DNA of 28,525 bases from a virus (taxonomy: Duplodnaviria; Heunggongvirae; Uroviricota; Caudoviricetes). Of this stretch, positions 892 through 18,216 are shown piece after piece. The notes beneath the pieces were generated by a model. The model had not been told where the DNA came from. It saw only the letters and a program-made list of their open reading frames with translations, and made no database searches. A program made the translations under genes and the position numbers. Within the stretch, counting starts at the first letter, position 1. Every line of letters begins with the position of its first letter. Where the stretch lies: positions 1-28,525 of the IMG/VR virus record IMGVR_UViG_643348547_000003. The stretch is one strand, 5' to 3'.

Positions 892-1214
892 TTTTTCCAG
901 AGGCGGTCGAACTCCGCCTTCGCAAAATAAGCGGAAGCCTGGCGAAGGATATCGTTACTGCGGCGCAGTTCACGATTTTCACGTTCCAGCTCTTTCAGAC
1001 GCTGACGTTCAGCGGTGGTGAGCCCTCCATCACCGCCCCCGGTATCCCGCTCATGCTGGCGAACCCAGACACGCAGAGTCTCCGGCGTACAGCCAATCTT
1101 TGGAGCAATGGAACAAATTGTCGCCCATTGTGAGTCATATTCGCTCTGACTTTCCAGAACCATACGGACTGCCCGTTGACGGACTTCGGGGGAAAAACGA
1201 GTATTTTTAGTCAT
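888..1214 (-). CDS. IS3-family transposase OrfA (HTH DNA-binding subunit)
   Basis: 108 aa, [19 protein letters not shown]..., with a C-terminal leucine-zipper-like region ([26 protein letters not shown]) typical of IS3 OrfA. Ends in an A-run overlapping the orfB start, consistent with a programmed -1 frameshift. Confidence 0.85.
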
Positions 1215-1268
1215 CCTGTTTACCTCTTTCTCAGGAAGTTTAGTCTCCAGGATTCCCGGGGCGGTTCA

Positions 1269-3876: not shown

Positions 3877-4242
3877 ATGGCTGGAACACAGCATACCCAA
3901 ACTCACCCTAAATTTATATACATCTTTCTGGCGCTACATCGCGATCGCATAGCAGATGGAGCAACTACGGTACATGTAGCCGCTGACACGCTGGTTGATG
4001 CCCGCAAGATGGTTAAGGAGATGGGCTATACTGCGGCTTTCTGGAAAGGGCGGGAAGAAAACACGCTGTTTATTCAGAAATGTGAAAACAATTTCCTCTG
4101 GCGTTTTATCGCCCTGAGTACGACACAACCGCGCGTGATTACCATCGAGGCCACCAGCGAACAGGAAGCCCGCCAGCAATCCCCAACTGGCTGCGTGATG
4201 ATATTCGCCGCCCGTATTCGTCAGGAGGTGTGCCATGAATGA
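3877..4242 (+). CDS. Hypothetical protein (first gene of the rightward operon)
   Basis: 121 aa, ATG at 3877 preceded by GAGG. This is the 3' portion of the long track ORF 3328..4242, whose upstream part is antisense to the RHH gene. No family assigned. Confidence 0.6.
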   Translation: MAGTQHTQTHPKFIYIFLALHRDRIADGATTVHVAADTLVDARKMVKEMGYTAAFWKGREENTLFIQKCENNFLWRFIALSTTQPRVITIEATSEQEARQQSPTGCVMIFAARIRQEVCHE

Positions 4243-4459
4243 TCTTTATTTTAAAGTGCTGACACATGCTGAAAACGCGCTCGTTTGTGGCAAAAATATG
4301 CGAGAAATCTTATCAACCTGGCTTGATGGGACAACAAATGCGGAACACGATGAACGGGATGCTAATTTAGCTGGAGCGTTAATTACGTTACTTGATCCTG
4401 TCATCAAAGAGCTGGATGAAGCTATAAAAATACACGACCAGAGCTATACCGAAGAATAA
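4235..4459 (+). CDS. Hypothetical protein
   Basis: 74 aa. Start overlaps the upstream stop; AGGAGG six nt upstream of the ATG. Confidence 0.5.
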   Translation: MNDLYFKVLTHAENALVCGKNMREILSTWLDGTTNAEHDERDANLAGALITLLDPVIKELDEAIKIHDQSYTEE

Positions 4460-4461
4460 AA

Positions 4462-4749
4462 ATGAAAAATAAATTTTCTGGCTTTATTGCCAGCGGTCAA
4501 GCTCATTCAAAAATCAGCCTTGGGGATATTTTCAAAGATAGCTATGGCTATCGGGTAAAGATTATTTCGGTTGATGATCGCCGTGTCTCTTATTTGCGTG
4601 ATGGTTATGATTTTGAATGTGTTATGCCGCGTCAGCAGTTCGAAAGAGATTTCATTCTGGTAAAAAATTGCAAGACAGATAATCAGAGGCGTGCCGCAGG
4701 CTATATCCGCAAAATTCGGGCAATGTTAGTTGCCGGAGGTAATAAATGA
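4462..4749 (+). CDS. Hypothetical small protein (possibly DUF4222-like; uncertain)
   Basis: 95 aa, tightly packed in the operon. The segment YRVKIISVDDRRVSYLRDGYDFECVMPRQQFERDFILV resembles what I recall of small conserved satellite/prophage proteins, but no search was run. Confidence 0.5.
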   Translation: MKNKFSGFIASGQAHSKISLGDIFKDSYGYRVKIISVDDRRVSYLRDGYDFECVMPRQQFERDFILVKNCKTDNQRRAAGYIRKIRAMLVAGGNK

Positions 4750-4928
4750 AACGTGCTCCGAACTTAAAATACCAACCGCGCGACAAAATGACAGAAGTCA
4801 TCATTTTTGCTGGCAGTGATGCCTAGAGCCATGCAAAAGAATGGAATGAATGGGCGGGTAAGCATATTGCAGCAGATGATACACCACCAGTAATTCTGGG
4901 TACGGAACAACTGGAAAACCTGGATGAT

Positions 4929-6566
4929 ATGCAAATTATCGATGAAGGCCGTCATTATGTGCGTGTTTATCGTGCCGGAAAGATTGCAGAGAAAAATCTG
5001 ACGAAGGTTGCGACATTACTTGCTATTGCAGGCGTAAAGGAAGCACGTTGTTACCGTAGCTTTGTTGATCGAGAGCCTGAAGACTGGACTCCGCGCCTTG
5101 TCGGCCTAAAAGCTGAAGCGGAGCATGGGGAAAGTCTGGTGATTGAACTGCCAGTGAAGAAGGCTGAGCGCAAAAATGACGAGCGTGCTTCATCTTTGGC
5201 GTTGAATCAGATGGGGGCCAGCCAGCGCGGTGAAGTTCTCCTTGCACATTACGGCGGCGAACTGGCAATCAATGCCGACTCTGACACCGTTCATCATTAC
5301 AACGGCGTTGTATGGGAGCCGGTTCAGGATAAAGAGTTACAGCGTGCTATGGCGCAGATTTTCATTGATGCGGAGATCAGCTATTCGCAGAACGCTATTA
5401 AATCGGCGGTAGATACCATGAAGTTAAGTTTGCCTGTAATGGGGAATACAGCCCGTAACCTGATTGGATTCAGTAACGGGGTATTTGATACCAGAACTGG
5501 TAATTTTCGGGAGCATAACAAAAACGACTGGTTGTTAATTGCCAGTGAATTACCTTTCAGCCCACCAGCAGAGGGGGAAACGCTGGCAACACATGCGCCG
5601 AATTTCTGGAAGTGGTTGCGCCGTTCGGTGGCTGAGAATGACCGCAAGGCAGATCGCGTACTGGCGGCATTATTCATGGTGCTGGCGAACCGGTACGACT
5701 GGCAGTTATTCATTGAGGTAACAGGGCCGGGGGGAAGTGGTAAAAGTGTGATGGCGGAGATTTGCACCATGCTGGCGGGTAAGGCTAATACAGTATCAGC
5801 AAGCATGAAGGCGCTGGAAGATGCAAGGGAACGTGCGTTAGTGGTTGGCTTTTCGCTGATTATCATGCCGGATATGACCCGCTACGCTGGTGATGGGGCA
5901 GGGATTAAGGCCATTACAGGCGGTGACAAGGTGGCAATTGACCCGAAACACAAAGCCCCCTATTCAACGCGTATTCCGGCAGTAGTGCTGGCGGTTAACA
6001 ATAACGCCATGTCATTCAGTGACCGCAGCGGGGGGATCTCACGTCGTCGGGTGATATTCAATTTTTCGGAAGTTGTACCGGAGAACGAACGCGATTCGAT
6101 GCTGGCGGAAAAAATAGAAGGTGAGCTGGCGGTAGTGATTCGTCATCTGCTTACAAGGTTTGCTGATCAGGACGAAGCCAGACGCCTGTTATATGAGCAG
6201 CAGAAATCTGAAGAAGCACTGGCGATAAAGCGAGAGGGGGATTCGCTGGTGGACTTCTGCGGTTATCTCATGGCATCGGTAATGTGTGATGGCCTGTTAG
6301 TGGGTAATGCTGAAATTGTGCCATTCAGCCCACGCAGGTATCTCTATCATGCCTATCTGGCTTATATGAGGGCACATGGGTTTGGTAAACCTGTAACACT
6401 GACGCGCTTCGGTAAAGATATGCCGGGGGCAATGGCGGAATATGGCAGGGAGTATATGAAACGGAAAACGAAGCACGGTTTGCGTTCAAACGTGACCCTG
6501 ACGGAGGAATCAGAAGACTGGATGCCATCATGTGTATCGGTCACTAATGACGATAGCAAAAATTAA
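4929..6566 (+). CDS. Replication protein, P4 alpha C-terminal / D5-like SF3 helicase-NTPase family
   Basis: 545 aa. Walker A motif VTGPGGSGKSV, Walker B-like LIIMPDMT, and a D5_N-like region (VVWEPVQDKELQRAMAQIFID). No obvious toprim primase domain. Immediately followed by an iteron array. Confidence 0.8.
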   Translation: MQIIDEGRHYVRVYRAGKIAEKNLTKVATLLAIAGVKEARCYRSFVDREPEDWTPRLVGLKAEAEHGESLVIELPVKKAERKNDERASSLALNQMGASQRGEVLLAHYGGELAINADSDTVHHYNGVVWEPVQDKELQRAMAQIFIDAEISYSQNAIKSAVDTMKLSLPVMGNTARNLIGFSNGVFDTRTGNFREHNKNDWLLIASELPFSPPAEGETLATHAPNFWKWLRRSVAENDRKADRVLAALFMVLANRYDWQLFIEVTGPGGSGKSVMAEICTMLAGKANTVSASMKALEDARERALVVGFSLIIMPDMTRYAGDGAGIKAITGGDKVAIDPKHKAPYSTRIPAVVLAVNNNAMSFSDRSGGISRRRVIFNFSEVVPENERDSMLAEKIEGELAVVIRHLLTRFADQDEARRLLYEQQKSEEALAIKREGDSLVDFCGYLMASVMCDGLLVGNAEIVPFSPRRYLYHAYLAYMRAHGFGKPVTLTRFGKDMPGAMAEYGREYMKRKTKHGLRSNVTLTEESEDWMPSCVSVTNDDSKN

Positions 6567-6580
6567 ACTTATGGAATAAC

Positions 6581-6801
6581 TGTTCACCACTGTTCACCCT
6601 GTCATAAATATCTTTTATATCAGTATATTATAGGGTGAACAGTTATTTATGAACTGTTCACCAAACTATTCACTGTTCACCTTTTTGATTGTTTATTGAG
6701 CTTCAAGGGTGAACAGTGGTGAACAGTTGGTGAATAGTTTTTGTGAAACTGTTCACCCATTAACATTATGAATTAAAAGAGAAAATATCAAAAGGTGAAC
6801 A
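6581..6801. repeat. Iteron array (putative satellite replication origin): about 9 copies of TGTTCACC / GGTGAACA
   Basis: TGTTCACC at 6581, 6591, 6655, 6674 and 6750. Reverse-orientation GGTGAACA at 6634, 6708, 6718 and 6794. This octamer is the iteron I recall from the P4 ori and crr, bound by the alpha protein. Confidence 0.7.
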
Positions 6802-6853
6802 GGTGAAGGGTTAAAACGCAAAAATTTTAATTTACTGCTGTGAGATAAAGCCT

Positions 6854-7099
6854 ATGACAGCGAAGCACACAAAAAAATCACAATCGCACGCCCTTGATTT
6901 GACGGAACACTGGTTAAGGGTGTCGATAAAAATCATCGACCGCAACGCCGGGGAAGGATACGCGAAAGCACATCCCGAACTGATTAGCGCATTCATGACA
7001 ACGGCGGCTGCAAACTTTGCCACTCTGACCGAACGGGAGATTGCTGAAGCGGAGGAAGTGACAACAATCAATATTAAGTCCGGAGAGCAGGCAGCATGA
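6854..7099 (+). CDS. Hypothetical protein
   Basis: 81 aa. Stop overlaps the start of the SSB-like gene (ATGA). Weak ribosome-binding site. Confidence 0.45.
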   Translation: MTAKHTKKSQSHALDLTEHWLRVSIKIIDRNAGEGYAKAHPELISAFMTTAAANFATLTEREIAEAEEVTTINIKSGEQAA

Positions 7100-7545
7100 C
7101 GGCGCAAATATCAGTTTACGGGCGGTTGGTGGACGACCCGCAGACAAAACAGACCAGCAAGGGCACCCCCATGACGCTGGCGCGTATGGCGGTATCACTG
7201 CCCTGCAGTCAGTCGGATGACGGTCAGGCGACGATGTGGTTATCTGTCCTGGCGTTTGGCAGACAAGCCGACGCGCTGGCAAAGCATCACAAAGGCGAAC
7301 TCCTGAGCGTGGCGGGTAATATGCAGGTGAGCCAGTGGACTGGACAGAACGGTGAAACGCGGCAGGGCTGGCAGGTTATCGCAGACAGCGTAATCAGTGC
7401 GCGAACGGTGCGACCGGGCGGCAAAAAAGGTCAACAGGGTCAGGCTACTGACGCACTGAACAGAGCAAAACAACAGGCAGATCAGCAAGGAAGCCATCCA
7501 CCAGTGGGAGATAATGAGCAATGGGGAGATGATATTCCGTTTTAA
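7096..7545 (+). CDS. Single-stranded DNA-binding protein (SSB-like)
   Basis: 149 aa. N-terminal OB-fold-like region, a Gly/Gln-rich linker and a C-terminal acidic tail ending DDIPF, the hallmark of the bacterial SSB C-terminus. Confidence 0.7.
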   Translation: MTAQISVYGRLVDDPQTKQTSKGTPMTLARMAVSLPCSQSDDGQATMWLSVLAFGRQADALAKHHKGELLSVAGNMQVSQWTGQNGETRQGWQVIADSVISARTVRPGGKKGQQGQATDALNRAKQQADQQGSHPPVGDNEQWGDDIPF

Positions 7546-7563
7546 ATATTGCCAATAAAAAAG

Positions 7564-7588
7564 GCCGGAAAAAAATAAATTTTCCGGC
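7564..7588 (+). terminator. Stem-loop downstream of the SSB-like gene (weak terminator candidate)
   Basis: GCCGGAAAA (7564..7572), 7-nt loop, TTTTCCGGC (7580..7588). No clear 3' U-tract. Confidence 0.35.
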
Positions 7589-7762
7589 ATGCTACATAAA
7601 TCCCGACCAAAGGGAGTGAAGATATTAACACTAATTATCCGCGCTGGAGTTGTTATCCCAAAACTTTATACAACATTGCACTCGGTTGCATGTATTCGCA
7701 TGACAAATATCGGTGATAGCATATATCCACAATTATTTTTAATGAATGCAAAGAGGATGCGT

Positions 7763-8803
7763 ATGGTTGATTTATATTCGCCTACCCAGCTTGTACAGGT
7801 GGTTAATGCTGTAGATGTACAAAAACAACTAAATGCGTTGTTTACCAGTTTGTTTTTTACTCGCTCGGTAATGTTTGAATCGCGCGATATTATTCTTGAT
7901 ACAATCGACGATCCAAATATCCCAATTGCAGCGTTTTGTTCTCCTATGGTAGGTAGTAAAGTTTCACGTGACGAAGGGTACGAATCAAAAACAATTCGTC
8001 CAGGCTATATGAAGCCGAAAAGCAGCATTGATCCAAATAAGTTAGCTGTGCGCCCTGCTGGTGTATCACCTGAGCAATACAATGCTTTTGGAGCGCGTAA
8101 TATTAAAGTTAAACAGGCGATTGTAAATCAGGCTAAAGCTATTCGTGCACGTATTGAATGGTTTGCCGTTCAGGCAATCACAACGGGGAAAAATATCATT
8201 GAGGGCGATGGTATTGAACGTTATGAGCTGGACTGGAATATAAAACCACAAAATATCATCACTCAGTCTGGCGGTACTGAGTGGTCAGGTAAGGATAAAG
8301 AAACTTTTGATCCAAATGATGATATTGAGAGCTACGCAGAATTTAGTGAGGGCGTCACTAATATCATCATTATGGGCGGTAATGTATGGAAGAAATACCG
8401 TTCATTCAGAGCGATAAAAGAGGCTCTGGATACCCGTCGTGGTTCTAATTCCGAACTGGAAACGGCCCTTAAAGACCTTGGTGATTCGGTGAGTTTTAAA
8501 GGGTATATGGGCGATGTTGCGATTGTTGTATACAGCGGGCGTTATACCGACGAGGACGGAACTGAAAAACATTTCCTTGATCCTGATTTGATGGTGCTTG
8601 GCAATACGGCTCTTCAGGGGATTGTCGCCTATGGCGGTATTCAGGATCCGGAGCTAATCCGAATGGGGCTGACTAAAGCCGAACTTGCACCGAAAAACTA
8701 TATTGTGCCTGGTGATCCGGCTATTGAATATGTGCAGACACATTCAGCACCACAGCCAATACCGGCCCGCATCAATCGTTTTGTTACCGTTCGCATTGGC
8801 TAA
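7763..8803 (+). CDS. Major capsid protein, phage lambda gpE family (divergent homolog)
   Basis: 346 aa from the ATG at 7763 (AAGAGGA five nt upstream). Alignable along its length to lambda gpE, with shared motifs NIITQSGGTEWS, DTRRGSNSELETA and GDVAIVVYSG. The 5' extension of the track ORF (7589..7762) is probably untranslated. Confidence 0.85.
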   Translation: MVDLYSPTQLVQVVNAVDVQKQLNALFTSLFFTRSVMFESRDIILDTIDDPNIPIAAFCSPMVGSKVSRDEGYESKTIRPGYMKPKSSIDPNKLAVRPAGVSPEQYNAFGARNIKVKQAIVNQAKAIRARIEWFAVQAITTGKNIIEGDGIERYELDWNIKPQNIITQSGGTEWSGKDKETFDPNDDIESYAEFSEGVTNIIIMGGNVWKKYRSFRAIKEALDTRRGSNSELETALKDLGDSVSFKGYMGDVAIVVYSGRYTDEDGTEKHFLDPDLMVLGNTALQGIVAYGGIQDPELIRMGLTKAELAPKNYIVPGDPAIEYVQTHSAPQPIPARINRFVTVRIG

Positions 8804-8812
8804 GGGGGAGCA

Positions 8813-9154
8813 ATGGCTACTCATTACACTGAACTCATGGCTGGCACTGAAGCACTGGTGACTACGCTGGGGATATTTTCAGCTAATAAAGGGGTAATTC
8901 CTGCATTTACGCCACTGATGCAGGAAGATGCAACAGGTGCACTGGTGGTATGGGATGGTTCGAGCGTAGGTAAAGCGGTTTATGTTTCCGCTGTACAAAT
9001 CGACACCGCGAAAAAAACACAGGCTCAGGTCTATAAGACAGGTGTCTTAAATGTTGATGCTCTGAACTGGCCTGAGTCTGTAAAAGAACTGTCAGTAAAG
9101 ATTGCAGCGTTTGTTGGCTCAGGTATTTCTGTTCAGCCGCTGGCTCGTGTGTAA
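8813..9154 (+). CDS. Head decoration protein, lambda gpD-like
   Basis: 113 aa. TPLMQEDATGALVVWDGSSVG and YKTGVLNVDALNWPE...AAFVGSGISV parallel lambda gpD. Lies downstream of the E-like gene, the reverse of the lambda D then E order. Confidence 0.75.
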   Translation: MATHYTELMAGTEALVTTLGIFSANKGVIPAFTPLMQEDATGALVVWDGSSVGKAVYVSAVQIDTAKKTQAQVYKTGVLNVDALNWPESVKELSVKIAAFVGSGISVQPLARV

Positions 9155-9165
9155 AGGGGGATACA

Positions 9166-9549
9166 ATGCAGAATGATTACAATGACCTTAAGCCACTTGC
9201 CGAAATGATGTACCCGAATCCAGCTGTAGAGGAATTAAAAGCTATCGCTGACAAAATGTGTTTAAGCGAGCGCCTTGTTGATATGAATCAGGTGATGGAA
9301 ATTACAACCCTGAGTCGGCGTACACTGCTAAACCTTGAGGCTAGTGGAGAGTTCCCGGAGCGTGTGCAGGTTACGGAAGGGCGTAAGGCCTGGTATTTAA
9401 GTGAAGTGATCGACTGGATAAATAATATTCCTCGCGCTTCTGAATATTGCCGCGTACCTGTCCCAAAAAAGCCAGATGCGGCGCTATGCCTCAAGATTGA
9501 GCGTGTACGCCGCAATGCACGGGATGGTCGCTATAAGCTGATTGGTTGA
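9166..9549 (+). CDS. AlpA-family HTH regulator with an N-terminal extension
   Basis: 127 aa. Core MEITTLSRRTLLNLEASGEFPERVQVTEGRKAWYLSEVIDWI matches the AlpA/HTH_17 pattern. Second AlpA-like gene in the island. Confidence 0.65.
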   Translation: MQNDYNDLKPLAEMMYPNPAVEELKAIADKMCLSERLVDMNQVMEITTLSRRTLLNLEASGEFPERVQVTEGRKAWYLSEVIDWINNIPRASEYCRVPVPKKPDAALCLKIERVRRNARDGRYKLIG

Positions 9550-9557
9550 TGAAATTA

Positions 9558-9581
9558 GGGCCCGCTCTGGCTGGCGGGTCC
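9558..9581 (+). terminator. GC-rich stem-loop after the second AlpA-like gene
   Basis: GGGCCCGC, 8-nt loop, GCGGGTCC, followed by TTTCC. Imperfect stem and short U-tract. Confidence 0.3.
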
Positions 9582-9713
9582 TTTCCGGCGATCTGACAGG
9601 CTACGGGGCGTCAGGCGCGCAGTTTTTTGCTATTTGTGAAAATTTTCCTGTTTAAGGCGTTTCCGTTCTTCTTCGCCGTAACTTAATGTTTTTATTAAAA
9701 ACACCCCCTAAAA

Positions 9714-9770
9714 AGAAAGGAAACGACAGGTGCTAAAAACAGGCTTTTTGGCCTCTGTCGTTTCCTTTCT
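9714..9770. other. Long perfect 16-bp inverted repeat (structured RNA or bidirectional terminator) in a roughly 600-bp non-coding spacer
   Basis: AGAAAGGAAACGACAG (9714..9729), 25-nt loop with an inner mini-hairpin, CTGTCGTTTCCTTTCT (9755..9770). Lies between convergent genes. Confidence 0.4.
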
Positions 9771-10147
9771 CTGGTTTTGTTGCCATCCGTCGCGGTCTAT
9801 CACCAGAAAAAATCTTATCCCTGAGTTGAATCAGGCCCTATTCAGAAGCGGTCAATAACGCGCCGCTAGCTTCACTTCATAGTTATGGCCTACTTCTGCG
9901 CCATTGCAATTGCTTTATGCGCCTTGATGGTGGAATATAGAGCAAGCAGTTTGCGAATAACAAAGTTTCATATGTTTTTTGCTGTGTGGCTAGACAACTT
10001 TACAGCAGAGTTTTGTGTCAGTTCTTTATGTGTGCAAGCAAGCTTGAGGGGGAATTACTTCTGGCTGCATCTTTGCTTAAGAACAGCAATAATTTAATCA
10101 TAAGGAAATGTATATAAGCCTGATTAAATTTCAGGCTTATTGAAATG

Positions 10148-11290
10148 TTAACTCCTTATTAGAGAGTAAATTCCATCCTCTTTAAGGAAGTCTATTACTT
10201 CAAAGAATGAGATAAAGAATTCCCAAGAACCAAAAGCATATGCATGAATTTCGTAAGGTGCAAAATGGAATCTAAATCCATCACTATTTATTGTGAACGA
10301 GTCTAAGTTACTATCCATGATACCCGTTGCAAACGTACTAATGTCGTCCTCACTTGGTTTTTCACCAGTTTTCTCCCAAAATTCACGAGCTGATTCAGAG
10401 ATTATTTTTTGTTTTATCTTATTAATCGCTTCTTGCTCTTTCCCTTCGGTAAATACATCCCATAAACTAAATTTGTATGCGTAGTCATCCTTGGTTATTA
10501 CGAAATTACTAGTTTCAAAATGACTGTTAGGGTGTGCTGCTCCCGCACCATACCAATGTACGGAATGAAGGATGCTCATAACATTTTCGTTACAGTATGA
10601 GATGTTATAACTTTCATTATAGGAACTAGTGTAAGTGTGTTTATATTCTTCATCCCAATATGGTGTTCCTGGCCATAGTGATGTGCGTTCAGAAAAAATA
10701 TGTAAAGCCGCTTTTCCTGAAAAGTAATCACTAATGAGTTTTGCTGATTTCGGTAATGTATGGCTTTCAATTCTTGGATATGCTATTTCAATTTCATGCC
10801 CTGGGATCTTGTTATATTCTTCCTTGAAAACCTCGCTGCTAAAGTTAAATGGCCCATAAGTGATACCTTGAGATATTTCAAGTTTTTGTTGCGATGCTGC
10901 TAATCTTAAAGATCTAGATAAAATGTCCCAACCATCATTTCTCTTAAAATCAATGAATTGGAGCTTGCTTGATATGTAGGCGGGTACTTCGCAATCATCA
11001 ATAAGTAATGGTATCACGAACACATCATCTGGTTTGTAATACTTTAGTTTATCAATGGCGTCATTTATTTCGCGGCGAATATAACCATTTTTCTGAGTGC
11101 TCACTTTGCTAAGGATAAGGATTATCAAGTTTGAATTAGCGAAGTTTTTTTGGATTTCATAATCCCAGTTTACGCCAGCGGGTATATCTTTTACATCCAT
11201 CCAAGGGGAATATCCTCCACTTTTTAGCCTTTCATAGATTTCTTCAGTTATCGTTTCATCTTCTTTTGCATGAGCAAGAAAAATTTTCAT
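10148..11290 (-). CDS. TIR-domain protein with a C-terminal DUF3298/RsiV-like domain (candidate antiphage effector)
   Basis: 380 aa in an AT-rich segment. The N-terminal 140 aa or so carry TIR-like hallmarks (KIFLAHAKEDE...W.D...I..G......I.ILSKVS...NGYIRREI). The C-terminal region contains HWYGAGAAHPNSHFETSNF...LWDVF, resembling the Y-x-GGAHG signature of DUF3298. SD-like AAGGA upstream of the start. No partner gene adjacent. Confidence 0.75.
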   Translation of the reverse strand: MKIFLAHAKEDETITEEIYERLKSGGYSPWMDVKDIPAGVNWDYEIQKNFANSNLIILILSKVSTQKNGYIRREINDAIDKLKYYKPDDVFVIPLLIDDCEVPAYISSKLQFIDFKRNDGWDILSRSLRLAASQQKLEISQGITYGPFNFSSEVFKEEYNKIPGHEIEIAYPRIESHTLPKSAKLISDYFSGKAALHIFSERTSLWPGTPYWDEEYKHTYTSSYNESYNISYCNENVMSILHSVHWYGAGAAHPNSHFETSNFVITKDDYAYKFSLWDVFTEGKEQEAINKIKQKIISESAREFWEKTGEKPSEDDISTFATGIMDSNLDSFTINSDGFRFHFAPYEIHAYAFGSWEFFISFFEVIDFLKEDGIYSLIRS

Positions 11291-11499
11291 TGAATATTCC
11301 TTTATAATTTAACTAATTAAGTGAAGGAGGCTTTACTTGGCTGTGTTAGAAAAAATTCGGTTTGTTTTTTGTACGATGCCAAGAAGGCTTTTCCCTAACC
11401 ATGTATTGCAGCATGTATTGCTACGTAATTCTGCACCCTCTCATTTATAAAATAAATCTCTGTTAAATCAAGTATCTTTTTTCTATTTGACTCATGTAA

Positions 11500-12288
11500 C
11501 CCAAGCATGAGGTGAATCCGCAGATGACCCTGCGTCGCCTGCCGGATGAAGATCCGCAGAATCTGGCGGACCCGGCTTACCGCCGCCGTCGCATCATCAT
11601 GCAGAACATGCGTGACGAAGAGCTGGCCATTGCTCAGGTCGAAGAGATGCAGGCCGTTTCTGCCGTGCTTAAGGGCAAATACACCATGACCGGTGAAGCC
11701 TTCGATCCGGTTGAGGTGGATATGGGCCGCAGTGCGGCGAATAACATCACGCAGTCCGGCGGCACGGAGTGGAGCAAGCGTGACAAGTCCACGTATGACC
11801 CGACCGACGATATCGAAGCCTACGCGCTGAACGCCAGCGGTGTGGTGAATATCATCGTGTTTGATCCGAAAGGCTGGGCGCTGTTCCGTTCCTTCAAAGC
11901 CGTCAAGGAGAAGCTGGATACCCGTCGTGGCTCTAATTCCGAGCTGGAGACAGCGGTGAAAGACCTGGGTAAAGCGGTGTCCTATAAGGGGATGTATGGC
12001 GATGTTGCCATCGTCGTGTATTCCGGACAGTACGTGGAAAACGGCGTCAAAAAGAACTTCCTGCCGGACAACACGATGGTGCTGGGGAACACTCAGGCAC
12101 GCGGTCTGCGTACCTATGGCTGTATTCAGGATGCGGACGCACAGCGCGAAGGCATTAACGCCTCTGCCCGTTACCCGAAAAACTGGGTGACCACCGGCGA
12201 TCCGGCGCGTGAGTTCACCATGATTCAGTCAGCACCGCTGATGCTGCTGGCTGACCCTGATGAGTTCGTGTCCGTACAACTGGCGTAA
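11500..12288 (+). pseudogene. E: Lambda major capsid protein E, 5'-truncated fragment (about C-terminal 260 aa)
   Basis: Translation PKHEVNPQMTLRRLPDEDPQNLADPAYRRRRIIMQNMRDEE... to ...DPDEFVSVQLA matches my recollection of lambda gpE from about residue 80 to the end. An in-frame TAA sits immediately upstream (11497..11499) and the upstream sequence is unrelated. Confidence 0.85.
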
Positions 12289-12329
12289 TCGTGGCCCTTC
12301 GGGGCCATTTTCTCTCTGTGGAGGAGTCC

Positions 12330-12728
12330 ATGACGAAAGATGAACTGATTGCCCGTCTCCGCTCGCTGGGTGAACAACTGAACCGTGATGTCAGTCTGAC
12401 GGGGACGAAAGAAGAACTGGCGCTCCGTGTGGCAGAGCTGGAAGAAGAGCTTGATGACACGGGCGACACTGCCGGTCAGGATACCCCTCTCAGCCCGGAA
12501 AATGTGCTGACCGGGCATGAACATGAGGTGGTATCAGCGCAGCCGGATACCGTGATTCAGGATACGGCTGAACTGGTCACGGTCGTGGCACTGGTGACGC
12601 TGCATACTGATGCACTTCACGCCACGCGGGATGAACCTGTGGCATTTGTGCTGCCGGGAACGGCGTTCCGTGTCTCTGCCGGTGTGGCAGCTGAAATGAC
12701 AGAGCGCGGCCTGGCCAGAATGCAATAA
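12330..12728 (+). CDS. FI: Lambda-like FI (DNA packaging / head-tail joining accessory protein)
   Basis: 132 aa, MTKDELIARLRSLGEQLNRDVSLTGTKEELALRVAELEEELDD..., near-identical to lambda gpFI as I recall it. GGAGGAG ribosome-binding site. Confidence 0.9.
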   Translation: MTKDELIARLRSLGEQLNRDVSLTGTKEELALRVAELEEELDDTGDTAGQDTPLSPENVLTGHEHEVVSAQPDTVIQDTAELVTVVALVTLHTDALHATRDEPVAFVLPGTAFRVSAGVAAEMTERGLARMQ

Positions 12729-12739
12729 CGGGAGGCGCT

Positions 12740-13093
12740 GTGGCTGATTTCGATAACCTGTTCGATGCTGCCATTGCCCGCGCCGATGAAACGATACGCG
12801 GGTACATGGGAACGTCAGCCACCATGACATCCGGTGAGCAGTCCGGCGCAGTAATACGTGGTGTTTTTGATGACCCTGAAAATATCAGCTATGCCGGACA
12901 GGGCGTGCGCGTTGAAGGCTCCAGCCCGTCCCTGTTTGTCCGGACTGATGATGTGCGGCAACTGCGGCGTGGAGACACGCTGACCATCGGTGAGGAAAAC
13001 TTCTGGATAGATCGTGTTTCGCCGGATGATGGCGGAAGCTGTCATCTCTGGCTTGGGCGGGGCGTACCGCCTGCCGTTAACCGTCGCCGCTGA
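12740..13093 (+). CDS. FII: Lambda-like FII (head-tail connector)
   Basis: 117 aa, MADFDNLFDAAIARADETIRGYMG...HLWLGRGVPPAVNRRR, matching lambda gpFII. Confidence 0.9.
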   Translation: MADFDNLFDAAIARADETIRGYMGTSATMTSGEQSGAVIRGVFDDPENISYAGQGVRVEGSSPSLFVRTDDVRQLRRGDTLTIGEENFWIDRVSPDDGGSCHLWLGRGVPPAVNRRR

Positions 13094-13104
13094 AAGGGGG
13101 ATGT

Positions 13105-13683
13105 ATGGCCATAAAAGGTCTTGAGCAGGCCGTTGAAAACCTCAGCCGTATCAGCAAAACGGCGGTGCCTGGTGCCGCCGCAATGGCCATTAACCGCGTT
13201 GCTTCATCCGCGATATCGCAGTCGGCGTCACAGGTTGCCCGTGAGACAAAGGTACGCCGGAAACTGGTAAAGGAAAGGGCCAGGCTGAAAAGGGCCACGG
13301 TTAAAAATCCGCAGGCCAGAATCAAGGTTAACCGGGGGGATTTGCCCGTAATAAAGCTGGGTAACGCGCGGATTGTCCTGTCCCGACGCAGGCGTCGTAA
13401 AAAGGGGCAGCGTTCAGCCCTGAAAGGTGGCGGCAGCGTGCTTGTGGTGGGAAACCGTCGTATTCCCGGCGCGTTTATTCAGCAACTGAAAAATGGCCGC
13501 TGGCATGTTATGCAGCGTGTGGCCGGGAAAAACCGTTACCCCATTGATGTGGTGAAAATCCCGATGGCGGTGCCACTGACCACGGCGTTTAAACAGAATA
13601 TTGAACGGATACGGCGTGAGCGTCTTCCGAAAGAGCTGGGCTATGCGCTGCAGCATCAACTGAGAATGGTAATAAAGCGATGA
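13105..13683 (+). CDS. Z: Lambda-like Z (tail completion protein)
   Basis: 192 aa, MAIKGLEQAVENLSRISKTAVPGAAAMAINRV..., matching lambda gpZ. Confidence 0.9.
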   Translation: MAIKGLEQAVENLSRISKTAVPGAAAMAINRVASSAISQSASQVARETKVRRKLVKERARLKRATVKNPQARIKVNRGDLPVIKLGNARIVLSRRRRRKKGQRSALKGGGSVLVVGNRRIPGAFIQQLKNGRWHVMQRVAGKNRYPIDVVKIPMAVPLTTAFKQNIERIRRERLPKELGYALQHQLRMVIKR

Positions 13684-14082: not shown

Positions 14083-14823
14083 ATGCCTGTACCAAATCCA
14101 GTAATGCCGGTGAAAGGTGCCGGGACCACACTGTGGGTTTATAAGGGGAACGGTGACCCTTATGCGAACCCGCTTTCAGACGTTGACTGGTCGCGTCTGG
14201 CAAAAGTTAAAGACCTGACGCCCGGCGAACTGACCGCTGAGTCCTATGACGACAGCTATCTCGATGATGAGGATGCGGACTGGACTGCGACCGGGCAGGG
14301 GCAGAAATCTGCCGGAGATACCAGCTTCACGCTGGCGTGGATGCCCGGAGAGCAGGGGCAGCAGGCGCTGCTGGCGTGGTTTAATGAAGGTGATACCCGT
14401 GCCTATAAAATCCGCTTTCCGAACGGCACGGTCGATGTGTTCCGTGGCTGGGTCAGCAGTATCGGTAAGGCGGTGACGGCGAAGGAAGTGATCACCCGCA
14501 CGGTGAAGGTCACCAATGTGGGACGCCCGTCGATGGCTGAAGATCGCAGTACGGTGACGGCGGCAACCGGCATGACGGTAACGCCAGCCAGTGCGTCCGT
14601 AGTGAAAGGGCAGAGCACCACGCTGACCGTGGCATTCCAGCCGGAAGGCGTAACCGACAAGAGCTTCCGTGCGGTGTCTGCGGATAAAACAAAAGCCACC
14701 GTGTCGGTCAGTGGTATGACCATCACCGTGAACGGCGTTGCTGCAGGCAAGGTCAACATTCCGGTTGTATCCGGTAATGGTGAGTTTGCTGCGGTTGCAG
14801 AAATTACCGTCACCGCCAGTTAA
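14083..14823 (+). CDS. V: Lambda-like V (major tail protein with C-terminal Ig-like domain)
   Basis: 246 aa from the internal ATG at 14083 ([22 protein letters not shown]...), matching lambda gpV. The track ORF start at 14053 is upstream of the conserved start. Confidence 0.9.
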
Positions 14824-14838
14824 TCCGGAGAGTCAGCG

Positions 14839-15261
14839 ATGTTCCTGAAAACCGAATCATTTGAACATAACGGTGTGACCGTCACGCTTTCTGAACTGTC
14901 AGCCCTGCAGCGCATTGAGCATCTCGCCCTGATGAAACGGCAGGCAGAACAGGCGGAGTCAGACAGCAACCGGAAGTTTACTGTGGAAGACGCCATCAGA
15001 ACCGGCGCGTTTCTGGTGGCGATGTCCCTGTGGCATAACCATCCGCAGAAGACGCAGATGCCGTCCATGAATGAAGCCGTTAAACAGATTGAGCAGGAAG
15101 TGCTTACCACCTGGCCCACGGAGGCAATTTCTCATGCTGAAAACGTGGTGTACCGGCTGTCTGGTATGTATGAGTTTGTGGTGAATAATGCCCCTGAACA
15201 GACAGAGGACGCCGGGCCCGCAGAGCCTGTTTCTGCGGGAAAGTGTTCGACGGTGAGCTGA
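14839..15261 (+). CDS. G: Lambda-like G (tail assembly chaperone)
   Basis: 140 aa, MFLKTESFEHNGVTVTLSELSALQRIEHLALMKRQAEQ..., matching lambda gpG. Confidence 0.9.
   Translation: MFLKTESFEHNGVTVTLSELSALQRIEHLALMKRQAEQAESDSNRKFTVEDAIRTGAFLVAMSLWHNHPQKTQMPSMNEAVKQIEQEVLTTWPTEAISHAENVVYRLSGMYEFVVNNAPEQTEDAGPAEPVSAGKCSTVS
15237..15243 (+). other. Programmed -1 ribosomal frameshift site (G GGA AAG) for the G-T fusion
   Basis: Slippery heptamer GGGAAAG near the 3' end of G, at the point where the T frame opens. This is the conserved lambda G/GT recoding site. Confidence 0.8.
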
Positions 15262-15701
15262 GTTTTGCCCTGAAACTGGCGCGTGAGATGGGGCGACCCG
15301 ACTGGCGTGCCATGCTTGCCGGGATGTCATCCACGGAGTATGCCGACTGGCACCGCTTTTACAGTACCCATTATTTTCATGATGTTCTGCTGGATATGCA
15401 CTTTTCCGGGCTGACGTACACCGTGCTCAGCCTGTTTTTCAGCGATCCGGAGATGCATCCGCTGGATTTCAGTCTGCTGAATCGGCGCGAGGCTGACGAA
15501 GAGCCTGAAGATGATGTGCTGATGCAGAAAGCGGCAGGGCTTGCCGGAGGCGTTCGTTTTGGCCCGGACGGGAATGAAGTTATCCCCGCTTCCCCGTATG
15601 TGGCGGACATGACGGAGGATGACGTAATGCTGATGACAGTATCAGAAGGGATCGCAGGAGGAGTCCGGTATGGCTGCACCGGTAGGCGATCTGGTCGTTG
15701 A
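15243..15701 (+). CDS. T: Lambda-like T segment of the G-T tail assembly chaperone (expressed by -1 frameshift from G)
   Basis: ORF in the -1 frame overlapping the G end (FDGELSFALKLAREMGRPDWRAMLAGMSSTEYADWHRFY...), matching lambda gpT. No independent start is expected. Confidence 0.85.
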   Translation: MFDGELSFALKLAREMGRPDWRAMLAGMSSTEYADWHRFYSTHYFHDVLLDMHFSGLTYTVLSLFFSDPEMHPLDFSLLNRREADEEPEDDVLMQKAAGLAGGVRFGPDGNEVIPASPYVADMTEDDVMLMTVSEGIAGGVRYGCTGRRSGR

Positions 15702-18216
15702 TTTAAGTCTGGATGCGGCCAGATTTGACGAGCAGATGGCCAGAGTCAGGCGTCATTTTTCCGGTACGGAAAGTGATGCGAAAAAAACAGCGGCAGTCGT
15801 TGAACAGTCAATGAACCGGCAGGCGCTGGCTGCACAGAAAGCGGGGATTTCCGTCGGGCAGTATAAAGCTGCCATGCGTATGCTGCCTGCGCAGTTCACC
15901 GACGTGGCCACGCAGCTTGCAGGGGGGCAGAATCCGTGGCTCATCCTGCTGCAACAGGGTGGTCAGGTGAAGGACTCCTTCGGCGGGATGATCCCCATGT
16001 TCAGGGGGCTTGCCGGTGCGATCACCCTGCCGATGGTTGGTATCACTTCGCTGGCGGTGGCGACCGGTGCGCTGGCGTATGCCTGGTATCAGGGTGACTC
16101 AACCCTGTCCGATTTCAACAAAACGCTGGTCCTTTCCGGTAATCAGGCGGGACTGACGGCAGATCGTATGCTGGCCCTGTCCAGAGCCGGGCAGGCGGCA
16201 GGGCTGACGTTTAACCAGACCAGCGAGTCACTGACGGCGCTGGTGAATGCCGGTGTGCGTGGTGGTGAGCAGTTTGAGGCAATCAGCCAGAGTGTGGCGC
16301 GTTTCTCCTCTGCATCCGGCGTGGAGGTGGACAAGGTCGCTGAAGCCTTCGGGAAGCTGACCACTGACCCGACGTCTGGGTTGACGGCGATGGCACGTCA
16401 GTTCCATAACGTGACGGCGGAGCAGATTGCGTATGTTGCTCAGTTGCAGCGTTCCGGCGATGAAGCCGGGGCATTGCAGGCGGCGAACGAGGCCGCAACG
16501 AAAGGGTTTGATGACCAGACCCGCCGCCTGAAAGAGAACATGGGCACGCTGGAGACCTGGGCAGACAGGACTGCGCGGGCATTCAAATCCATGTGGGATG
16601 CGGTGCTGGATATTGGTCGTCCTGATACCGCGCAGGAGATGCTGATTAAGGCAGAGGCTGCGTTTAAGAAAGCAGACGACATCTGGAATCTGCGCAAGGA
16701 TGATTATTTTGTTAACGATGAAGCGCGGGCGCGTTACTGGGATGATCGTGAAAAGGCCCGTCTTGCGCTTGAAGCCGCCCGAAAGAAGACTGAGCAGCAG
16801 ACTCAACAGGACAAAAATGCGCAGCAGCAGAGCGATACCGAAGCGTCACGGCTGAAATATACCGAAGAGGCGCAGAAGGCTTACGAACGGCTGCAGACGC
16901 CGCTGGAGAAATATACCGTCCGTCAGGAAGAACTGAACAAGGCACTGAAAGACGGGAAAATCCTGCAGGCGGATTACAACACGCTGATGGCGGCAGCGAA
17001 AAAGGATTATGAAGCGACGCTGAAAAAGCCGAAGCAGTCCGGCGTGAAGGTGTCTGCGGGCGATCGTCAGGAAGACAGTGCTCATGCTGCCCTGCTGACG
17101 CTTCAGGCAGAACTCCGGACGCTGGAGAAGCATGCCGGAGCAAATGAGAAAATCAGCCAGCAGCGCCGGGATTTGTGGAAGGCGGAAAGTCAGTTCGCGG
17201 TACTGGAGGAGGCGGCGCAACGTCGCCAGCTGTCCGCACAGGAGAAATCCCTGCTGGCGCATAAAGATGAGACGCTGGAGTACAAACGCCAGCTGGCTGC
17301 ACTTGGCGACAAGGTCACGTATCAGGAGCACCTGAACGCGCTGGCGCAGCAGGCGGATAAATTCGCACAGCAGCAACGGGCAAAACGGGCAGCCATTGAG
17401 GCGAAAAACCGGGGGCTGACTGACCGGCAGGCAGCGCGGGACGCCACGGAACAGCGCCTGAAGGAACAGTATGGCGATAATCCGCTGGCGCTGAATAGCG
17501 TCATGTCAGAGCAGAAAAAGACCTGGGCGGCTGAAGACCAGCTTCGCGGGAGCTGGATGGCAGGCCTCAGGTCAGGCTGGAGTGAGTGGGAAGAGAGCGC
17601 CACGGACAGTATGTCGCAGGTTAAAAGTGCAGCCACGCAGACCTTTGATGGTATTGCACAGAATATGGCGGCGATGCTGACCGGCAGTGAACAGAACTGG
17701 CGCAGCTTCACCCGTTCCGTGCTGTCCATGATGACAGAAATTCTGCTTAAGCAGGCAATGGTGGGGATCGTCGGGAGTGTCGGCAGTGTCATTGGCGGTG
17801 CATCAGCGTCAGGCGGTACAGCCATTCAGGCATCTGCGGCGAAATTCCATTTTGCGACCGGAGGATTTACGGGAACCGGCGGCAAATATGAGCCAGCGGG
17901 GATTGTTCACCGTGGTGAATTTGTCTTCACGAAGGAGGCAACCAGCCGGATTGGCGTGGGGAATCTTTACCGGCTTATGCGCGGCTATGCCACCGGCGGT
18001 TATGTCGGTACACCGGGCAGCATGGCGGACAGTCGGTCGCAGGCGTCCGGGACGTTTGAGCAGAATAACCATGTGGTGATTAACAACGACGGCACGAACG
18101 GTCAGATAGGGCCACAGGCGCTGAAGGCTGTTTATGACGTAGCCCGTAAGGCGGCAATGGATGTTGTGACCGGGCAGATGCGTGATGGTGGTCTGTTCTC
18201 CGGAGGTGGACGATGA
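15670..18216 (+). CDS. H: Lambda-like H (tail tape measure protein)
   Basis: 848 aa, MAAPVGDLVVDLSLDAARFDEQMARVRRHF..., near-identical to lambda gpH as recalled, with a small deletion in the Gly-rich region near the C-terminus. Confidence 0.92.
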   Translation: MAAPVGDLVVDLSLDAARFDEQMARVRRHFSGTESDAKKTAAVVEQSMNRQALAAQKAGISVGQYKAAMRMLPAQFTDVATQLAGGQNPWLILLQQGGQVKDSFGGMIPMFRGLAGAITLPMVGITSLAVATGALAYAWYQGDSTLSDFNKTLVLSGNQAGLTADRMLALSRAGQAAGLTFNQTSESLTALVNAGVRGGEQFEAISQSVARFSSASGVEVDKVAEAFGKLTTDPTSGLTAMARQFHNVTAEQIAYVAQLQRSGDEAGALQAANEAATKGFDDQTRRLKENMGTLETWADRTARAFKSMWDAVLDIGRPDTAQEMLIKAEAAFKKADDIWNLRKDDYFVNDEARARYWDDREKARLALEAARKKTEQQTQQDKNAQQQSDTEASRLKYTEEAQKAYERLQTPLEKYTVRQEELNKALKDGKILQADYNTLMAAAKKDYEATLKKPKQSGVKVSAGDRQEDSAHAALLTLQAELRTLEKHAGANEKISQQRRDLWKAESQFAVLEEAAQRRQLSAQEKSLLAHKDETLEYKRQLAALGDKVTYQEHLNALAQQADKFAQQQRAKRAAIEAKNRGLTDRQAARDATEQRLKEQYGDNPLALNSVMSEQKKTWAAEDQLRGSWMAGLRSGWSEWEESATDSMSQVKSAATQTFDGIAQNMAAMLTGSEQNWRSFTRSVLSMMTEILLKQAMVGIVGSVGSVIGGASASGGTAIQASAAKFHFATGGFTGTGGKYEPAGIVHRGEFVFTKEATSRIGVGNLYRLMRGYATGGYVGTPGSMADSRSQASGTFEQNNHVVINNDGTNGQIGPQALKAVYDVARKAAMDVVTGQMRDGGLFSGGGR

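Follow-up and report, generated by a model that had tools for sequence, protein, structure and literature searches.

A lambda-type capsid and decoration gene pair in the late region of a helper-embedded PICI of Escherichia coli

A lambda-type major capsid gene (E') followed by a head decoration gene (D') was identified in a 28,525-nucleotide stretch of viral DNA (the whole stretch is referred to as the window), and with high confidence the pair can be assigned to a Gram-negative phage-inducible chromosomal island (PICI) from the helper-embedded 11capE family, in which it forms the conserved late (morphogenesis) module. The window sequence is that of E. coli IAI39 (100% identity), and the island in it is a decayed, immobile fossil copy in a prophage remnant at argU. 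The original prediction had taken the arrangement to be undescribed; this did not hold, as the capsid-decoration pair of EcCICFT073 was reported in 2018 and the 11capE family in 2023 (PMC6092414, PMC10111431). The element, its insertion into a helper capsid gene and its capsid and decoration genes are therefore already known. What is added here is the conservation of the module across loci, the selection figures, a capsid lineage absent from the phage records searched and the losses in the window copy.

Identity and gene content of the island

The island shares 99.2-99.3% nucleotide identity over 8.4 kb with Eco567.11capE of strain NRG857c, the match spanning the integrase, alpA, primase, SSB, E', D', AlpA-like gene and cos. 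Eco567.11capE, one of the PICIs that are helper-embedded (HE-PICIs), has 201 instances at this site in E, and the insertion point of 11capE is codon ~80 of the lambdoid E gene; in NRG857c its excision and replication were shown, and virions of the composite were not detected (Tommasini et al. 2023, PMC10111431). The window copy is like Eco567.11capE in its att core in E, doubled motif, variant cosN and helper-type cosB. It differs in carrying an IS3 element at the 5' end of the integrase, in the loss of attL and the helper head genes and in a stop within the primase, and its helper remnant lies at argU rather than icd. The left part of the island comprises the following features.

1269-2180, + strand: tyrosine integrase of the island, 5'-truncated, without residues 1-108 (Pfam Phage_integrase)
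2182-2409, + strand: alpA, AlpA-family regulator/excisionase (Pfam Phage_AlpA, 3e-15; annotation)
3877-4749, + strand: Icd-like gene, hypothetical gene and DUF4222 gene (RefSeq annotation; Pfam DUF4222, 3e-22)
4746-6566, + strand: primase/helicase with D5_N, DUF5906 and Pox_D5 domains (Pfam)
6575-6812, both orientations: replication origin with iteron GGTGAACAGT (repeat search)
6854-7545, + strand: 81-aa hypothetical gene, then single-stranded DNA-binding protein (SSB) gene (Pfam SSB, 2.6e-16; annotation)

These features are those of the Gram-negative PICIs described by Fillol-Salom et al. (2018). The integrase and alpA are co-directional at one end, and the element has its own primase, a pseudogene here and intact in relatives, with an iteron origin just downstream. 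It also has a helper-type cos and no tail or lysis genes (none inside the island by RefSeq annotation), and its intact relative falls in the range of 10-20 kb. At least 11 copies of the iteron lie within 6575-6812, and the published PICI origin is likewise located downstream of the primase (PMC6092414). Pfam, annotation and the repeat search thus confirmed the integrase, alpA, primase-type replication protein and iterons that had been predicted. The genes at 3877-4749 separate the integration module from the replication module. An intact relative measures ~11 kb between its att sites, in the order integrase, alpA, icd-like gene, DUF4222 gene, primase with iteron origin, SSB, E', D', AlpA-like gene, cos with or without a Nu1-type TerS, and a slot for defence cargo.

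The absence of portal, protease, scaffold and terminase genes from the island in the window, also predicted, was upheld by Pfam and RefSeq annotation. When helper portal and protease were used in tblastn, matches were found only outside the island, in the helper, and PICI TerS sequences gave no tblastn match in the window. Relatives do carry a Nu1-family TerS, and in close relatives this small terminase gene is usually present just downstream of the module. The island ORFs do not include the own portal, protease, head-tail connector and terminase that would make it a capsid-forming PICI. The gene order is PICI-like rather than P4-like. No island ORF was annotated as, or matched, P4-like sid, psu or delta, a weak test in which Sid, Psu and Delta sequences were not used as queries, and no P4 CI/isrK-type RNA was found in the island at Rfam gathering thresholds, the sole match being the frameshift pseudoknot of the IS3 element.

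E' and D' are homologs of lambda gpE and gpD

The putative late module consists of three genes.

7763-8803, + strand: E', satellite major capsid protein of the lambda gpE family, 346 aa
8813-9154, + strand: D', satellite head decoration protein of the gpD/SHP family, 113 aa
9166-9549, + strand: second AlpA-family helix-turn-helix protein, 127 aa (Pfam Phage_AlpA, 7.6e-9; PDB 8C3T, 2e-9)

RefSeq labels the first two as 'major capsid protein' and 'head decoration protein' at exactly these coordinates. An AGAGGA ribosome-binding site lies 7 nt 5' of the ATG at 7763; a 404-aa ORF starting at 7589 was rejected as E', being merely an in-frame extension upstream. E' matched Pfam Phage_cap_E (PF03864) over profile positions 4-327 of 329 (8e-41, 140.6 bits, curated cut-off 22.9), a full-length match that places it among the lambda gpE-type capsid proteins. 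D' matched Pfam HDPD (PF02924; 4e-15, 56.3 bits, cut-off 29.1) and, in PDB sequence searches, the solved structures of phage 21 SHP (1TD0, 6e-16) and lambda gpD (7VII_H, 1e-11), which places it among the gpD/SHP decoration proteins. In the same type of search E' aligned end to end with lambda gpE (7VI9, 6e-77, residues 12-345) and over its full length with PDB 3BQW (8.5e-121). The predicted full-length gpE homolog and gpD homolog were thus borne out by both Pfam and PDB sequence matches.

At the amino acid level E' shares 42% identity with lambda E and 41% with the helper E, and D' shares 38% with the helper D. As had been noted before, the nucleotide sequences of E' and the adjoining E fragment are diverged save for short patches, which were found to be two: 136 nt at 76% and 25 nt at 92%. 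These comparisons support the view that E' and D' are diverged full-length homologs of E and D, and that E' did not arise by duplication of the neighbouring E.

The AlpA-like protein was considered as an Rpp-like factor and rejected, since it matches the AlpA structure 8C3T only and no Rpp or TerS structure.

The island is integrated inside helper gene E

11403-11425, + strand: doubled GTATTGC(AG) motif adjoining attR (GTATTGCAG..GTATTGC)
11498-11507, + strand: attR core AACCCAAGCA, a 10-bp identity block at codon ~80 of gene E (attL/attR of NRG857c compared with the window)
11500-12288, + strand: helper gene E, C-terminal 258 codons (RefSeq 'major capsid protein, missing N-terminus')

The helper E fragment begins at the att core, is co-stranded with the island genes, shares 98% amino acid identity with E of the helper prophage 50icd and is followed by FI, FII, Z, U, V, G, T, H, M, L, K, I and J. 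In NRG857c, STEC711, Cedecea and Kosakonia the island is flanked by an 82-codon N-terminal fragment of E and by the C-terminal fragment, and fusing the two NRG857c fragments at the 10-bp block restores a 341-aa E. The E fragment at the core in the window, together with the attL side in these four relatives, identifies the HE-PICI site E:Phage_cap_E_80. The island had originally been described as lying next to a lambda prophage with a truncated E; the truncation stands, and the adjacency gives way to site-specific integration inside E, since the truncated E is the attR side of the island insertion.

Published HE-PICIs number 491. HE-PICIs have a 'doubled DNA motif' (PMC10111431), and the window has both such a motif and an integrase that is placed in the HE-PICI clade by 99.3% nucleotide identity with the 11capE integrase over the retained part. 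The doubled motif at 11403-11425 probably represents arm-type binding sites of the recombinase or of AlpA.

The cos region and the region upstream of E'

7660-7725, + strand: promoter-like region, about three TTGCAY repeats 10 bp apart, then GTGATAGCAT (alignment)
9575-9780, + strand: cos region (blastn and alignment with the cos of 50icd)

A search of the window for the lambda cosN pattern gave chance-level matches only, and the island cos was located by blastn with the helper cos of NRG857c. In its cosQ-like and cosB-like parts, identity with the cos of 50icd is ~90%; a shared 258-bp segment of 90% identity was noted earlier (PMC10111431). The cos with its helper-type cosB speaks for packaging by the terminase of the helper. 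The variant cosN GGGCGTCAGGCG at 9606-9617 departs from the helper cosN at 5 of 12 positions, and cleavage there by the helper terminase cannot be taken for granted. In NRG857c the cos is followed by a 64-aa ORF of which only the first 15 residues are common with Nu1.

The region at 7660-7725 is conserved in an alignment of six islands from five genera and may act as a promoter. A late promoter upstream of E' had been named as something to look for. A sigma-70 and terminator scan of 6500-10200 returned no more sites than shuffled sequence, and no promoter call is based on that scan. Since ATTGCA is not enriched across the island, no claim is made that the repeats preceding E' and the att-arm motif are one site.

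The module is conserved and under purifying selection

E'-D' followed by cos was kept in all 11 further loci, from six genera, and the predicted E-then-D order recurred in 12/12 loci examined. An AlpA-like gene lies between D' and cos in nine of the 11 other loci; in the Nissle island (L008) an unassigned 137-aa protein takes its place. In every one of the 12 loci SSB and primase lie upstream of E', and it is this arrangement, rather than portal and protease, that marks the element as a satellite island and not a phage head module, as predicted. A module of 95-96% nucleotide identity (E'-D'-AlpA-like) is present in PICIs at cspD/clpS, and a module of ~80% identity in a PICI at tRNA-Pro. A single-protein scan of genome contigs returned four loci, all from close relatives.

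The E'-D'-AlpA-like module is under strong purifying selection. Where dS was unsaturated, dN/dS was 0.05-0.08 for E', 0.09-0.12 for D' and 0.06-0.08 for the AlpA-like protein; between genera dS was saturated and pN ranged from 0.04 to 0.21. All E'-D' copies from the six genera are full-length and stop-free. Among 50,697 phage records no relative of E' above 42.3% identity was found, which points to an old satellite lineage rather than a recent capture. D' has co-diverged with E', and a cognate cement protein is sensible only if E' forms an expanded lattice.

Decay of the window copy

1-1268, - strand: IS3-family insertion sequence, transposase CDS 1-1214 (RefSeq annotation)

The IS3 element contains an ALIL frameshift pseudoknot at 817-933, and homology with the intact island begins at 1269. 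Insertion of the element and a linked deletion cost the island its attL and integrase codons 1-108, and the helper prophage its left half, with the early and head genes. The retained integrase matches the 11capE integrase from position 6545 of locus L002 onward; the Arm-DNA-bind_3 domain (residues 7-93) is seen in the intact integrase only and is absent from the window copy. The primase, which is intact at 606 aa in NRG857c, carries an 'internal stop' in the RefSeq annotation of the window. The window copy has lost its TerS gene as well. Unable to excise or replicate, the window copy would have E' and D' as expressed remnants at best.

Proposed function and alternatives

The 11capE integrase inserts the island at the 10-bp core in gene E of a lambdoid prophage, in the same orientation as the late operon, and so splits the capsid gene. 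In the proposed mechanism, E' would function as a shell protein with the HK97 fold and D' would be the cement protein cognate to it; once induced, the two may assemble on the helper portal and scaffold/protease into heads, which the helper terminase would fill from the island cos. The satellite, or an unexcised composite, would thereby gain a capsid supply independent of the interrupted helper E.

Published deletion experiments concern EcCICFT073, which carries capsid gene c1499 followed by head decoration gene c1500. Deletion of either left island transfer and lambda interference unchanged, packaged DNA was phage-sized, and the authors report no phenotype for c1499 (Fillol-Salom et al. 2018, PMC6092414). 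Given these results, size redirection is unlikely for that homolog, which is 54% identical to E'. We tentatively suggest, as a possibility well short of an expectation, that the shell of satellite-transducing particles is itself made of E' and D', with the portal, scaffold/protease, terminase and tails coming from the helper; the null result in EcCICFT073 would then reflect redundancy with the helper E under laboratory conditions, the pair becoming essential when the helper E is unavailable, incompatible or targeted by defences. Helper E would be unavailable, for example, to helper-embedded islands before excision, and targeted, for example, by capsid-sensing defences. Such a shell is compatible with the purifying selection, the co-divergence of D' with E' and the satellite-only lineage.

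The 'backup copy' idea, first raised by Tommasini et al. (2023, PMC10111431), holds that E', with D', replaces the helper capsid gene interrupted by the island, so that the composite makes heads before or without excision. A replacement capsid module, one of the roles in the original prediction, resembles this idea. Since the island splits E at codon ~80 in the orientation of the late operon, late transcription could enter it, and before excision the only intact capsid gene of the composite is E'. The same module, however, sits at cspD/clpS and tRNA-Pro, where no helper gene is broken, so it is not tied to disruption of E, and the composite of ~61 kb exceeds the lambda packaging limit (PMC10111431); we consider this explanation rather doubtful. 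It is less probable still that E' acts on helper heads as a dominant-negative or size-redirecting subunit, poisoning or shrinking them. There is a precedent in Ccm of SaPIbov5, a satellite homolog of the helper capsid protein that gives small capsids in a cos-type SaPI (PMC5052747, PMC8569155), and redundant interference could have been masked in the EcCICFT073 single deletions, in which RppA was present. Against this, deletion of c1499 or c1500 failed to restore lambda plaques and packaged DNA was phage-sized, results on homologs that speak against the suggested dominant-negative role, and a poison subunit needs no co-evolving decoration protein held at dN/dS ~0.1.

That the pair is a functionless relic, made up of captured helper late genes heading for loss, might be argued from the lack of phenotype of the EcCICFT073 homologs and from the dynamic late zones of PICIs, which take up helper genes. 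This is very improbable: it is contradicted by the dN/dS values, by constant length and freedom from stops across six genera, and by the deep divergence (~42% identity) from all phage E genes. If the pair were native to the head region of a lambdoid prophage that was chimeric or had been rearranged, outside any satellite, this would account for the adjoining lambdoid tail genes and truncated E and for the IS3-rearranged left side of the window. That reading can be regarded as effectively refuted, with hardly any probability left to it: the boundaries are att sites, which when joined restore E in NRG857c, SSB and primase precede E' in 12/12 loci, independent chromosomal insertions hold the same module, and the capsid lineage occurs in none of the sequenced phages searched.

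If E' and D' do form a shell on helper parts, E'-D' PICIs would stand functionally between the classical PICIs that steal capsids and the capsid-forming ones. Of 29 reference Gram-negative PICIs, 21 have a capsid gene (PMC10111431), and a literature search found no later functional study of PICI capsid or decoration genes. The present results sharpen the puzzle of why a lambda-type capsid protein and cement protein of their own are retained in PICIs although homolog deletions have no laboratory phenotype. The answer would show whether common E. coli satellites build their own shells, and would help to understand how helper-embedded satellites reconcile sabotage of the helper with dependence on it.

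Comparison with known satellites

EcCICFT073 has the same architecture, with a capsid-decoration pair followed by cos and a packaging-specificity gene, and is packaged via cos by lambdoid helpers (Fillol-Salom et al. 2018 and 2019). Its integration site is chromosomal, whereas the 11capE-type island lies in a prophage gene; its RppA retargets the helper TerS to a PICI-specific cosB, whereas the window island has a helper-type cosB and neither Rpp nor TerS. SaPIbov5 is likewise a cos-site satellite encoding a homolog of the helper major capsid protein. Its Ccm joins the helper capsid protein in assembly and makes the head smaller, in contrast to the E. coli PICI homolog, with its phage-sized DNA and silent deletion, and SaPIbov5 is without a decoration partner, in contrast to the window island with D'. 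Capsid-forming PICIs have in common with the window island the integrase-alpA-primase left half and a satellite-encoded capsid protein, but they carry portal, protease, head-tail connectors and terminase, none of which the window island has, and build whole heads alone.

The Nissle/3BQW-type PICI capsid protein, used here as a proxy for the CFT073 type, is 54% identical to E'. PDB entry 3BQW, titled 'putative capsid protein of prophage', shares 97% identity with the capsid protein encoded by the tRNA-Pro PICI of E. coli Nissle. The PICI lineage of capsid proteins is thus already represented by a crystal structure, one from another sub-lineage than E'. The entry presumably derives from strain CFT073.

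Accessory cargo

10148-11290, - strand: TIR-DUF3298 protein, accessory cargo (Pfam TIR_2, 3e-21; DUF3298, 1e-10)

The TIR-DUF3298 protein matches TIR-containing PADLOC models and is a candidate anti-phage defence gene product. Its slot is filled by other defence genes in relatives, such as DUF262 plus HEPN in NRG857c.

Organisation and integration site of the island

The window matches E. coli IAI39 (NC_011750.1) at 100% identity, its position 1 being position 5202 of the IAI39 locus record.

Features of the window, in order
1 to about 1268, minus strand: IS3-family element
ends at 2180: tyrosine integrase, 5'-truncated
2182-2409: alpA
after alpA and before the icd-like gene, minus strand: two small genes
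before the primase: icd-like, hypothetical and DUF4222 genes
4746-6566: primase, D5/P4-alpha type, with internal stop
6575-6812: iteron block, at least 11 copies of GGTGAACAGT
between the iterons and the SSB gene: 81-aa gene
7096-7545: SSB gene
7763-8803: E' (gpE-family capsid protein)
8813-9154: D' (gpD/SHP-family decoration protein)
9166-9549: second AlpA-family gene
9575-9780: cos region, with cosN at 9606-9617
10148-11290, minus strand: TIR-DUF3298 gene
11500-12288: lambdoid gene E, C-terminal 258 codons
downstream of the E fragment: FI, FII, Z, U, V, G, T, H, M, L, K, I and J, in that order

The same island is carried by E. coli NRG857c (99.2-99.3% identity over 8.4 kb), where it splits E into an N-terminal piece of 82 codons and a C-terminal piece. 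The lambdoid prophage around it is otherwise complete, running terminase, portal, S49 protease, D, E fragment, island, E fragment, FI and tail genes. Both NRG857c junctions contain the 10-bp block AACCCAAGCA, and joining the E fragments at this block yields an intact 341-aa E. The attR junction of the window has AACCCAAGCA at 11498-11507, with a doubled GTATTGC motif before it, and the nested layout recurs in E. coli STEC711, Cedecea and Kosakonia. The shared junction block, the restorable E and the same nesting in relatives identify the island, as judged from sequence, as a site-specific insertion in the helper capsid gene, co-oriented with it; the E beside the island is truncated because the island inserted within it.

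The doubled GTATTGC(AG) motif lies approximately 75-95 bp inside both island ends (window 11403-11425; NRG857c locus 6184-6205 and 17027-17050). These copies are probably arm-type binding sites, and a "doubled DNA motif" is mentioned in the 2023 description of such elements (PMC10111431).

That description, by Tommasini, Mageeney and Williams, names the element Eco567.11capE, a PICI of the "helper-embedded" kind (HE-PICI), with 201 instances at the E site among 491 HE-PICIs at 14 late-gene sites, and reports that, of 29 reference Gram-negative PICIs, 21 have a capsid gene (PMC10111431). In the model island EcCICFT073, a capsid protein gene, c1499, is followed by a head decoration protein gene, c1500 (Fillol-Salom et al. 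2018, PMC6092414). The E-then-D pair is thus a standard PICI feature. The original prediction was correct that the island is a satellite. It erred in treating the arrangement as new, since 11capE and c1499/c1500 were published before, and its premise, that an E. coli satellite has either remodelling accessory proteins or else an entire head module, was incomplete, given c1499/c1500 and the frequency of PICI capsid genes. Element family and gene pair are both already known, and the window holds a degraded copy.

Decay of the IAI39 copy

What the window holds is a fossil copy of the island. Its homology to the intact element starts at 1269, and therefore the first 108 integrase codons, including the arm-DNA-binding domain, are lost. 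The N-terminal portion of E has likewise gone, as have attL and every early and head gene of the helper; the IS3 element (window 1-1268) lies in their place. A fragment of a different integrase, beside tRNA-Arg (argU), occupies the other IS3 flank (IAI39 locus 4807-5162), so the whole stretch from the helper prophage integrase to codon 108 of the island integrase seems to have been lost in a single IS3-associated deletion. NRG857c and STEC711 have an intact primase of 606 aa; the IAI39 one carries an internal stop. Still intact in the window are E', D', the AlpA-like gene and the SSB gene, which differ very little from their counterparts in copies that look mobile.

The E' and D' proteins

E' (346 aa, its start at 7763 preceded by a good ribosome-binding site) matched nearly the entire Pfam Phage_cap_E profile (8e-41), and D' (113 aa) matched HDPD (4e-15). 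Against solved structures, E' aligned end to end with lambda gpE (7VI9, 6e-77) and more strongly with 3BQW (8.5e-121), a PDB entry titled "putative capsid protein of prophage"; D' matched phage 21 SHP (6e-16) and lambda gpD (1e-11). The capsid protein of the tRNA-Pro PICI of E. coli Nissle (10821-11876 of its locus record) is 97% identical to 3BQW. A PICI-lineage capsid protein has therefore already been crystallised, 3BQW being a member of the satellite lineage, not the capsid protein of a phage.

E' shares 42% identity with lambda E, 41% with E of the NRG857c helper prophage and 45% with the E fragment next to the island; D' and helper D are 38% identical. At the nucleotide level, E' and the neighbouring E fragment have only two patches in common (136 nt at 76% and 25 nt at 92%). 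E' precedes D', an order opposite to that of lambda, and the island in this window was found to contain no gene for a portal, protease, scaffold or terminase. The predicted family assignments, inverted order, missing head genes and divergence of the two E homologs all held.

Conservation and selection

Conservation of the E-then-D pair in related islands was confirmed, and the conserved unit exceeds the pair, comprising E', D', the AlpA-like gene and cos, plus a 180-aa Nu1-family small terminase (TerS) in most relatives. It is present in the helper-embedded islands of STEC711 and Kosakonia (the latter with an ORF of similar N-terminal sequence after cos), and in PICIs at tRNA-Pro (Nissle, EC43), at cspD/clpS (two strains) and in Superficieibacter; in Nissle, an unassigned 137-aa protein stands where the AlpA-like gene would be. 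The module's occurrence at chromosomal sites means that it is not restricted to islands interrupting E.

Where synonymous divergence was unsaturated, dN/dS was 0.05-0.08 for E', 0.09-0.12 for D' and 0.06-0.08 for the AlpA-like gene. Between genera, synonymous sites were saturated, protein identity was 79-86% for E' and 68-76% for D', and lengths were constant. No E' relative above 42.3% identity was found among 50,697 phage genome records. This places E' in a long-standing satellite lineage and not as a recent capture from a helper.

Possible role of the capsid and decoration pair

Sequence and literature together establish a PICI satellite that integrates in helper gene E and carries its own replication module and a cos for the helper terminase. 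The role of the capsid and decoration pair, strongly conserved and private to satellites, is a real question and one already recognised in the literature. E' and D' would be functional shell and cement proteins, most likely providing capsid shells for packaging of the satellite, or of the unexcised composite, and these shells would use helper portal, scaffold/protease, terminase and tails. That D' co-diverges with E' and is under selection argues for an E' lattice that expands and is packed to high DNA density.

The same co-divergence speaks against E' as a poison subunit directed at the helper. Such interference is further disfavoured by EcCICFT073, in which deletion of c1499 or c1500 left island transfer and lambda interference unchanged (PMC6092414), although these deletions were made with RppA present, a protein that retargets helper TerS to the PICI cos (2019 follow-up of Fillol-Salom et al. 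2018). Packaged EcCICFT073 DNA was phage-sized, and no c1499 phenotype was detected (PMC6092414). The published idea that E' is a backup for the interrupted helper capsid gene cannot be the general explanation, as the module is also found in PICIs that interrupt nothing. That the pair is a relic is contradicted by the selection on it, and the native head region of a rearranged lambdoid phage, the alternative named in the original prediction, by the att boundaries and the phage search.

Packaging site, upstream region and cargo

In relatives that encode a TerS of their own, cosB is PICI-type, as in STEC711 and the chromosomal PICIs, where the TerS is of the Nu1 family. In the window and NRG857c, which lack TerS, cosB and the first Nu1 codons are helper-type, approximately 90% identical to the cos of 50icd, the NRG857c helper prophage; packaging specificity looks to have been swapped through recombination with the helper cos region. 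A variant cosN, GGGCGTCAGGCG, is common to three E. coli helper-embedded islands (cos regions: window 9575-9780; NRG857c locus 14775-15000; STEC711 locus 10775-10950), differing at 5 of 12 positions from GGGCGGCGACCT of lambda and the helper. Among other islands, cosN is either canonical or a different variant again.

Upstream of E' (7660-7725), about three TTGCAY repeats at 10-bp spacing are followed by GTGATAGCAT. The conservation of this region across five genera suggests a candidate activator-dependent promoter, for which AlpA or the AlpA-like protein may be the activator. A generic sigma-70 promoter scan of 6500-10200 was uninformative, its sites being no more numerous than in shuffled sequence.

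The slot between cos and attR was observed to be a variable defence-gene hotspot.

Contents of the slot (locus record coordinates except for the window; all minus strand)
Window, 10148-11290: TIR-DUF3298
Cedecea, 12118-13254: TIR-DUF3298, 70% identity to the window
NRG857c, 15254-16970: DUF262 (NsnA/PD-T4-2_A-like) and HEPN pair
STEC711, 12183-12944: abortive-infection family protein
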